Source: a virus
Virus genome (UHGV): UHGV-1783573
Strand: one strand, 5' to 3'
Length of the DNA stretch: 11,149 nucleotides
The position numbers and the translations under genes were made by a program. This document shows, one piece after another, positions 1-652 of this stretch. The notes beneath the pieces were generated by a model, which worked only from the letters and a program-made list of their open reading frames with translations, was not told where the DNA came from and searched no databases. Every line of letters starts with the position of its first letter. Position 1 is the first letter of the stretch.

Positions 1-1
1 T

Positions 2-77
2 GCCGACTTAGCTCAGTAGGTAGAGCAACTGACTTGTAATCAGTAGGTCACCAGTTCGATTCCGGTAGTCGGCACCA
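2..77 (+). tRNA. thrU: tRNA-Thr (anticodon UGU)
   Basis: 76-nt cloverleaf: acceptor GCCGACT/AGTCGGC, anticodon stem ACTGA/TCAGT with loop CTTGTAA (anticodon TGT), T-loop TTCGATT, 3' ACCA. Matches my recollection of E. coli tRNA-Thr4 (thrU); not database-verified. Confidence 0.88.
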
Positions 78-85
78 TCAAGTCC

Positions 86-170
86 GGTGGGGTTCCCGAG
101 CGGCCAAAGGGAGCAGACTGTAAATCTGCCGTCACAGACTTCGAAGGTTCGAATCCTTCCCCCACCACCA
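86..170 (+). tRNA. tyrU: tRNA-Tyr (anticodon GUA), long variable arm
   Basis: 85-nt type II tRNA: acceptor GGTGGGG/CCCCACC, anticodon loop CTGTAAA (anticodon GTA), long variable arm, T-loop TTCGAAT, 3' ACCA. Variable arm GTCACAGAC matches the tyrU rather than tyrT variant as I recall it. Confidence 0.9.
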
Positions 171-286
171 ATTTCGGCCACGCGATGGCGTAGCCCGAGA
201 CGATAAGTTCGCTTACCGGCTCGAATGAAGAGAGCTTCTCTCGATATTCAGTGCAGAATGAAAATCAGGTAGCCGAGTTCCAGGAT

Positions 287-361
287 GCGGGCATCGTATA
301 ATGGCTATTACCTCAGCCTTCCAAGCTGATGATGCGGGTTCGATTCCCGCTGCCCGCTCCA
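287..361 (+). tRNA. glyT: tRNA-Gly (anticodon UCC)
   Basis: 75-nt cloverleaf: acceptor GCGGGCA/TGCCCGC, anticodon loop CTTCCAA (anticodon TCC), T-loop TTCGATT, 3' TCCA. Matches recalled E. coli tRNA-Gly2 (glyT). The 116-bp spacer from the Tyr tRNA matches the chromosomal tyrU-glyT spacing as I remember it. Confidence 0.9.
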
Positions 362-367
362 GTTAGA

Positions 368-413
368 GTCTTTCAGTCTGCGATGATGGGAAATCCCGGA
401 GTGACTGAAAGAC
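368..413. repeat. Perfect 11-bp inverted repeat (GTCTTTCAGTC / GACTGAAAGAC) with 24-nt spacer, function unknown
   Basis: Arms at 368-378 and 403-413 are exact reverse complements. The spacer contains a nested GGGAAATCCC mini-palindrome. Begins 7 bp after the tRNA-Gly 3' end. Confidence 0.8.
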
Positions 414-420
414 GTTTAAG

Positions 421-492
421 TTATGAATGATCGCTTTTTTTGCAAAATTGCTGTGCAGAAATACTAACCTTCGGGCAGGCGATCATTCATAA
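421..492. repeat. Perfect 14-bp inverted repeat (TTATGAATGATCGC / GCGATCATTCATAA) with 44-nt spacer, function unknown
   Basis: Arms at 421-434 and 479-492 are exact reverse complements. The spacer carries a T7 run, a GCAAAATTGC palindrome and a CCTTCGGG mini-hairpin. Confidence 0.8.
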
Positions 493-530
493 GCACTCTG
501 CTTTTATTCCGATTAACTGTGGGTGGTTTG

Positions 531-561
531 TTGGATAGAGTGCTTTCCTTACTGTATATAT
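531..561 (+). promoter_or_regulatory. Candidate sigma70-type promoter upstream of the lysis operon (possible late-promoter analogue)
   Basis: TTGGAT at 531-536 followed 18-19 bp later by TATATA/ATATAT at 555-561, with a T-rich tract (573-592) between it and the holin RBS. By-eye motif match only. Confidence 0.25.
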
Positions 562-652
562 CGTTTCGCCCGTTTTTGCGGTTTTTTCTTTTCAAATCCC
601 TTTCATTTCTCAGTGTAAAACTACGCCATCCGTTATTTGCGGAGGTGAGGCT

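Follow-up and report, generated by a model that had tools for sequence, protein, structure and literature searches.

The junction between tRNA genes and phage DNA in the window, by which we mean the whole 11,149-nt stretch of UHGV virus genome UHGV-1783573 analysed here, is in all probability an assembly artefact, produced when a short-read assembler walked through exact tRNA repeats shared by phage and host. The attachment of a chromosomal tyrU gene and its spacers to phage DNA is best explained by mis-assembly through two exact repeats of 77–78 nt that flank the chromosomal segment. The features of the window on which this reading is based are as follows.

1–78, + strand: first exact repeat, consisting of T, tRNA-Thr(UGU, 2–77) and T; common to the E. 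coli chromosome and canonical prophages, and a shared unitig in the graph
79–284, + strand: chromosome-only segment, consisting of the rest of the 8-nt spacer, tRNA-Tyr(GUA, 86–170, tyrU) and most of the 116-nt tyrU–glyT spacer; 100% chromosomal identity
285–361, + strand: second exact repeat, consisting of AT and tRNA-Gly(UCC, 287–361, glyT); common to chromosome and prophage, and a shared unitig
362–652, + strand: phage-only intergenic region between tRNA-Gly and the holin gene; matches prophage L001 downstream of its tRNA-Gly
653–2284, + strand: lambdoid lysis cassette (Pfam scan)
653–868, + strand: S holin, PF04971 (Pfam scan)
873–1223, + strand: YdfR/DUF1327 (Pfam scan)
1287–1820, + strand: R lysozyme (Pfam scan)
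1817–2284, + strand: Rz (Pfam scan)
1815–2003, + strand: second join, an exact stretch common to siphovirus-type prophages and P22-like phage, inside Rz (sequence comparison with a wider parent set)
2487–11149, + strand: P22-like late region (Pfam scan and 99.7–99.9% identity to contigs L009–L017)

Three tRNA genes were called by ARAGORN, namely tRNA-Thr(TGT) at 2–77, tRNA-Tyr(GTA) at 86–170 and tRNA-Gly(TCC) at 287–361, separated by spacers of 8 nt (78–85) and 116 nt (171–286). The chromosomal thrU-tyrU-glyT locus of E. coli was identical to window positions 1–361 at 361 of 361 positions, both spacers included. A match to this segment was present in all 5,426 complete E. coli genomes, and in 5,423 of the 5,443 matching records the best place had an identity of 99% or more. 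The resemblance, which had been noticed in a preliminary description made from the letters of the window, is thus far beyond chance. The order of the Thr(UGU), Tyr(GUA) and Gly(UCC) genes is likewise that of the chromosomal thrU-tyrU-glyT-thrT-tufB operon. Chromosomal identity ended at the glyT CCA (position 361), and from position 362 onward the window consists of phage DNA unrelated to the chromosome; the bases that end the tyrU–glyT spacer before position 287 are ...TTCCAGGAT, and the phage bases after position 361 are GTTAGAGTCTTTCAG.

In E. coli C, the order of the locus is coaA (on the opposite strand), thrU, tyrU, glyT, 6 nt, thrT and tuf. The chromosomal operon accordingly continues into thrT and tufB, whereas the window continues into phage DNA, and the promoter region on the coaA side of the operon lies outside the window, which starts one base before thrU. 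No thrT, tufB, Q or integrase gene was found within the window, and thrT was not called by ARAGORN either. A P21-type holin gene, S, starts at position 653, 291 nt past the end of glyT. On all of these points the preliminary description was accurate: it had placed the stop of homology just after the glyT CCA end, had seen a holin gene within 300 bp of the tRNAs, had listed thrT/tufB, Q and integrase as absent, and had stated that chromosomal glyT is followed by thrT within a few bp and then by tufB. The assumption that failed was that host and phage sequences are contiguous across the tRNAs.

The phage side of the junction has a common and well-documented counterpart. The canonical lambdoid order is Q, tRNA-Ile(CAU), tRNA-Lys(UUU), tRNA-Thr(UGU), the trinucleotide TAT, tRNA-Gly(UCC), about 291 nt, S, YdfR, R and Rz, in which the tRNA-Ile(CAU) is labelled as Met by ARAGORN. 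This four-tRNA Ile-Lys-Thr-Gly array was present in 601 of 5,426 closed E. coli genomes, and its Thr-TAT-Gly junction, GGCACCATATGCGGGC, was present in at least 120 IMG/VR contigs, many of which we take to be isolate genomes from their genome-style IMG identifiers. The Thr and Gly genes of the array match thrU and glyT base for base. They are separated by 3 nt, and tyrU is lacking, in every closed genome and every isolated phage with the array. An Ile-Lys-Thr-Gly array between Q and S is therefore ordinary, common and already annotated in GenBank/RefSeq, and it is the real biology beneath the artefact. A literature search on this array or on tRNA-mediated chimeric contigs returned nothing specific.

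Window positions 362–2068 matched the lambdoid lysis cassette at 98–99.9% identity. Carriers of this cassette include the isolates vB_EcoS-689R5 (ON470583), vB_EcoM-606R7 (ON470580), PhiR47_1 (PV340566) and phi467 (LN997803), together with 258 closed E. coli genomes, and in all of them the cassette lies in the canonical Q-to-Rz context. These isolates and the prophages of the 601 closed genomes share with the window the sequences of the Thr and Gly genes, the 291-nt region from tRNA-Gly to the holin gene and, at 98–99.9% identity, the S-YdfR-R-Rz cassette; they differ from it in that only TAT stands between Thr and Gly, where the window has positions 79–284, and the window starts at Thr and lacks Q, Ile and Lys. 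Against the siphovirus-type prophages L001 and L002, the cassette was 98–98.5% identical up to position 1909/2068, and positions 285–1124 differed from L001 by a single mismatch.

A BLAST comparison of the window with the same two prophages returned exactly two pieces, 1–78 and 285–2068. The sole difference between the window and ordinary prophages at the array is consequently the chromosomal stretch of 206 nt (79–284), which lies between two shared tRNAs and is missing from all canonical phage relatives.

We constructed a de Bruijn graph solely from one ordinary chromosomal locus (L003, from E. coli C) and one ordinary prophage (L001). At k = 31, 55 and 77, every k-mer of window positions 1–700 was already present in this two-parent graph, and the shared unitigs were exactly window positions 1–78 and 285–361. 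At k of 79 or more, a junction-specific k-mer starting at position 284 was needed, and this k-mer was absent from the graph. Repeats of 77–78 nt exceed the k-mer sizes commonly used by short-read assemblers; for example, the default maximum k of metaSPAdes is 55, which is below the repeat length. The identical stretches would equally serve a real homologous recombination, and k-mer sufficiency alone does not distinguish an artefact from a recombinant.

The left end of the window coincides with a fork in the same graph. Chromosome and prophages differ in the base before tRNA-Thr, which is A in the former and G, following tRNA-Lys, in the latter, and window position 1 is therefore the first base common to both contexts. 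It is also the first base of the shared unitig and hence a graph fork, position 1 being assumed to be the true end of the contig. Look-ups with four exact proteins (portal, YdfR with its private SNP, endolysin and Rz) did not retrieve the source contig of the window. Trimming of the left end by a tRNA-aware provirus caller was considered as another origin of this end and fits less well, because a sequence trimmed in this way would start at position 2 according to ARAGORN, one base after the observed start. An end at the repeat boundary would be expected as well from a genuine phage with the complete 361-nt block.

These observations can be accommodated by the following sequence of events. Two separate real loci would be involved, the chromosomal operon thrU, 8 nt, tyrU, 116 nt, glyT, thrT and tufB, and the prophage order Q, Ile(CAU), Lys, Thr, TAT, Gly and S holin. 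At k of 77 or less, the Thr and Gly tRNAs would collapse into shared nodes connected by two arms, namely TAT from the phage and 206 nt from the chromosome. The phage arm would be a very short edge (3 nt plus the k-mer overlap) with the coverage of one prophage-bearing strain, and the tRNA nodes would have the combined coverage of all Enterobacteriaceae present, so that cleaning of short low-coverage edges would delete the phage arm. With this short strain-specific arm pruned or not chosen, backward extension from the unique phage lysis genes would run through glyT and the chromosomal arm to thrU, and would halt at the fork between chromosomal and phage upstream sequences, which is window position 1. 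The left part of the window, its end included, would thereby be reproduced. For the window's own source, we infer both the mis-walk of the assembler and the pruning step that removed the phage arm, rather than having observed them. Loss of the phage arm by pruning is consistent with the distribution of the two junctions, the canonical one being found at least 120 times in IMG/VR and the chimeric one in metagenomes only.

We searched for the join in closed genomes and in deposited phage sequences. It was found in none of the 5,426 closed E. coli genomes with queries of window positions 1–460 and 1–1300. The order phage tRNA-Lys, Thr, complete tyrU was found in none of these genomes and in none of 50,697 phage records. 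The junction of spacer, glyT and phage DNA gave no match in IMG/VR or in 185,579 species-representative genomes, and a Thr-spacer-tyrU sequence running past the anticodon gave no match in IMG/VR. Across IMG/VR, the phage records and the closed genomes, a phage form with a complete tyrU was not found; only a 35-nt remnant of the gene was detected, in one draft genome.

The join was found only in five metagenome contigs (L004–L008), all of which are colinear with the window from position 1 to about 2060. Upstream of tRNA-Thr, these five contigs display three mutually incompatible contexts. In L004, whose name is SPAdes-style, and in L008, the upstream sequence is coaA-birA-murB of E. coli. In L005, it consists of a phage tRNA-Lys, tRNA-Met(CAT) and Q, 99.6% identical to phage vB_EcoS-689R5. 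In L006 and L007, it is a chromosome that is just 78% identical to E. coli and that corresponds to Citrobacter (braakii / meridianamericanus), with 100% identity right up to thrU. The tyrU–glyT spacer of L006 and L007 is nevertheless of the E. coli type and is followed by E. coli phage DNA, the spacer of Citrobacter itself being very different. L006 and L007 thus combine Citrobacter, E. coli chromosomal and phage sequences and are three-way chimeras formed via identical tRNAs. Moreover, L005, L006 and L007 are mutually identical over window positions 1–1124 despite their unlike upstream DNA. The contigs look like walks, in every combination, through a single collapsed 361-nt node that has several entries and exits; the window represents the case where the left fork was left unresolved.

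The contigs with an E. coli flank are what would be expected from a real chromosomal rearrangement, in which recombination between glyT and the tRNA-Gly of a prophage, by inversion or deletion, brought coaA-thrU-tyrU-glyT next to the lysis genes. Such a rearrangement could use the 77 identical nucleotides common to chromosome and prophage at glyT, and L004 and L008 do have murB-birA-coaA of E. coli upstream of the join. However, the product was seen in none of the 5,426 closed E. coli genomes, although 601 of them carry both partners. The deletion form would lose tufB-secE-nusG and downstream essential genes, as judged from the gene order; the version that pairs an E. coli spacer with Citrobacter upstream DNA is impossible as a simple rearrangement; and the window starts at the fork between phage and chromosome, not inside chromosomal DNA. 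We regard a chromosomal inversion or deletion at glyT as very improbable and as the least likely reading. The suggestion in the preliminary description that phage DNA had replaced thrT-tufB in a chromosome thus finds no support: none of the 5,426 closed genomes has this arrangement, and cross-genus chimeras are present among the metagenome contigs with the join.

A second possibility is that the Thr-Tyr-Gly block is really carried by a phage. The Thr-TAT-Gly pair could have gained tyrU and both spacers from the host operon by double crossover or gene conversion within the 78-nt and 77-nt flanks, or the whole block could be ancestral and Thr-TAT-Gly could have arisen by deletion. Flanks of 77–78 nt suffice for RecA-dependent exchange. 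The trinucleotide TAT corresponds to T at position 78 and AT at positions 285–286 of the host sequence, and the phage pair thus equals the host operon minus exactly positions 79–284. The 515-kb contig from which L005 derives has phage DNA on both sides of Thr-Tyr-Gly, with phage Q, Met and Lys upstream and phage lysis genes downstream. This layout is what true gene conversion would look like.

Further evidence of exchange comes from L161 and L162, two prophages of one IMG draft genome, in which the phage tRNA-Thr is followed by a copy of the host 8-nt spacer plus 35 nt from the start of tyrU. The junctions of these remnants have no shared sequence and lie beyond what any k-mer graph could generate; in L161, the join truncates a methyltransferase gene 117 nt in. 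At least one exchange of this region between phage and host operon is documented by the remnant, which also speaks for an origin of the phage Thr gene in that operon. A real exchange is thereby more likely a priori, but the join of the window is not rescued, given that none of the 601 closed genomes with the array has it. The join is also absent from deposited phages and from IMG/VR; the form is known solely from short-read metagenome assemblies, where it stands beside demonstrably chimeric versions; and the spacer is identical to present-day chromosomal alleles, which excludes an old lineage. A real phage-borne block is accordingly unlikely in our view.

The preliminary description had also proposed that the phage carries host tRNAs between Q and S, different from the usual ileZ-argN-argO. 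This proposal was right in kind, since an Ile-Lys-Thr-Gly array with Thr and Gly genes equal to thrU and glyT does occupy that slot, and it did not hold for the Tyr gene, which is lacking from the 3-nt Thr–Gly gap in all closed genomes and isolated phages with the array. It had further considered either of its two readings unusual, while noting that an arrangement common among described phages would be an ordinary one. The Thr-TAT-Gly form is indeed common and annotated, and the join that includes tyrU and its spacers is best read as a mis-assembly.

The ileZ-argN-argO array (Ile-Arg-Arg) of Stx-type and other lambdoid phages is another occupant of the Q-to-S slot, with the same S-YdfR-R cassette downstream, in L023, L024, L026 and L027. 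Its tRNA-Ile(CAU) is identical to that of the Ile-Lys-Thr-Gly array, and the tRNA-Arg at the argN position has a close paralogue in the phage tRNA-Lys. The tRNA identities otherwise differ, and no Thr or Gly genes are present in it.

A second join was detected inside Rz, where siphovirus-type and P22-like phages have positions 1815–2003 exactly in common when a wider set of parents is compared. To its left, the window is of the siphovirus type up to position 1909, with one SNP at position 1610. To its right, the window is P22-like, with 100% identity to L010 from position 1886 and 100% identity to L165 from position 1815 to position 8284, the extent that was compared. Elsewhere in the gene index, the exact Rz of the window recurs in L165 alone, a SPAdes-named metagenome contig with a coverage of 4.4x, which has different S, YdfR and R genes upstream and no tRNAs. 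The exact combination of R and Rz in the window occurs nowhere else in the gene index. The composition of the window can thus be written as chromosome (1–361), siphovirus-type prophage (285–1814 and beyond) and P22-like phage (1815–11149), with every join in an exact repeat of 77–189 nt, of which the repeat at the Rz join accounts for 95–189 nt.

From these sequence matches, the second join may also be a mis-walk. Natural precedents for it exist, namely prophages with the order S-YdfR-R-Rz-KilA-N in closed genomes, and a P22-like prophage of a closed genome (BS15R-A) with the order Q, tRNA-Asn, tRNA-Thr, S, YdfR, R and Rz. Each join of the window was found inside a stretch that is identical between two separately documented parents (1–78 and 285–361 at the tRNAs; 1815–1909/2003 in Rz). 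The window resembles chimeras of collapsed repeats in de Bruijn graphs in several respects: its joins lie in exact repeats of 77–189 nt, it ends at a repeat boundary, it has no novel k-mers at k of 77 or less, and its flanks are inconsistent in other contigs.

An artefact of this kind is mainly of cautionary value. Where the tRNA genes of a phage equal those of the host, they constitute exact repeats of 77–78 nt, and these give rise to chimeric contigs between host and phage, even across genera. Such contigs (L004–L008) are already in public metagenome collections, where they could be mistaken for the ends of prophages or for integration sites, or could mislead the assignment of hosts. A real junction would represent either a phage that gained a whole segment of a host tRNA operon or the fusion of a prophage end with a housekeeping operon. 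If gene conversion were the true explanation, the tRNA arrays of temperate phages would be kept identical to those of the host, and sometimes enlarged, by ongoing exchange with host tRNA operons.

The remainder of the window belongs to a P22-like phage. The gene order of the late region is KilA-N, gp49/66-family, DUF2560, small and large terminase, portal, scaffold, coat, gp4 and the start of a gp10-like gene, which is cut by the window end at 11149. Terminase_3, P22 portal, scaffold, P22 coat and gp4 are present in the order of P22 and constitute a P22-like head/packaging module. Window positions 1818–11149 were 92–94% identical to the deposited P22-like phages phiv205-1, Kapi1, CUS-3 and HK620, and 99.7–99.9% identical to metagenome contigs of the same P22-like phage (L009–L017). 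The nearest P22-like relatives with an identical portal differ from the window in having their own Q, a Phage_holin_3_1 holin and a 158-aa lysozyme, and no tRNAs. At the right end, L010, L012 and L018 run on identically past position 11149, with no obvious fork. A simple scan of positions 1–900 called no promoter or terminator, and the phage-only region at 362–652 contains two perfect inverted repeats, 368–378/403–413 and 421–434/479–492.

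The spacer between tRNA-Thr and tRNA-Gly in the siphovirus-type lambdoid prophage L001 consists of only 3 nt (TAT, positions 12078–12080), which correspond to position 78 plus positions 285–286 of the window; these are the host bases bordering the segment 79–284, which contains the chromosome-only tyrU and its spacers. The common phage Thr-Gly pair therefore represents exactly the host operon minus tyrU and its spacers. The phage tRNA-Thr and tRNA-Gly genes were 100% identical to thrU and glyT. The tRNA-Ile(CAU) and tRNA-Lys genes, by contrast, were accessory, with matches in 3,057 of 5,426 genomes.

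A partial tyrU following a host-type spacer was found in two distinct prophages of the same draft genome, both of which carry Met(CAT)-Lys-Thr:

L161 (IMG/VR UViG_2681813004_000013), 2144–2264, – strand: region with the host-type spacer and partial tyrU
L162 (IMG/VR UViG_2681813004_000006), 3163–3283: region with the host-type spacer and partial tyrU

In both prophages, tRNA-Thr is followed on its 3΄ side by the 8-nt host-type spacer and by 35 nt of the start of tyrU, which end at the anticodon loop, and the DNA beyond this piece is unrelated. The L161 join truncates a gene for an N6/N4 methyltransferase, at 117 nt from the gene start. This remnant, which was present in no further IMG/VR contig, looks like a relic of the capture of the host thrU-tyrU region.

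The phage tRNA-Lys(UUU) (L001, 11923–11999) is a close paralogue of the tRNA-Arg(UCG) at the argN position (9173–9249) of L023, a phage locus with the classic Ile-Arg-Arg array. The acceptor stem, D arm and T arm of the two are nearly the same, and the differences lie mostly in the anticodon stem-loop. Moreover, the upstream tRNA-Ile(CAU) of the classic arrays is identical to that preceding the phage tRNA-Lys. These results suggest anticodon switching inside phage tRNA arrays.

Another tRNA set was found in a P22-like prophage of a closed genome, between Q and the essD-YdfR-R-Rz cassette:

L164 (E. coli BS15R-A, NZ_CP063349.1), 4765–4920: tRNA-Asn and tRNA-Thr

This example shows that the slot between Q and S can hold a third kind of tRNA set, and that tRNAs in this slot are possible for P22-like phages.

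The public metagenome contigs that carry the tRNA-lysis junction are probably chimeras. Two of them, L006 (OLIY01002732.1) and L007 (OJSN01002304.1), start from a flank of Citrobacter chromosome and combine it with a tyrU-glyT spacer of the E. coli type and with lysis genes of E. coli phage, the parts being connected via identical tRNA sequences; in L004 (UPWK01001047.1) and L008 (OERM01001002.1), phage lysis genes are joined directly to E. coli coaA-birA-murB. The group further includes L005 (OBCT01000001.1). At window position 227, in the tyrU-glyT spacer, the base is that of E. coli C, and all five contigs have the other base. Chimeric contigs of this kind could misdirect analyses of host assignment or prophage boundaries.

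A second join in the window was located inside Rz:

1815–2003: second mosaic join, within Rz (1817–2284)

The sequence to its left is siphovirus-type (S-YdfR-R) and that to its right is P22-like. The join sits in an exact repeat of 95–189 nt common to both phage types, and the exact pairing of R and Rz in the window had no second occurrence in the gene index. The join arose either by natural recombination at this site or by a further mis-assembly.

Two perfect inverted repeats lie in the window closely downstream of the phage tRNA-Gly:

368–413: arms of 11 nt, loop of 24 nt
421–492: arms of 14 nt, loop of 44 nt

Neither was called by a simple terminator scan; in the late transcript, they may form structures for RNA processing or for termination. 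Both fall within positions 285–1124, which differ from L001 by one mismatch, at position 888, and are thus present in L001 as well. At this position (codon 6 of YdfR), most close relatives (L001, L002, L005–L007 and L020) carry a different base from the window, whose exact YdfR protein was found in only eight indexed contigs.
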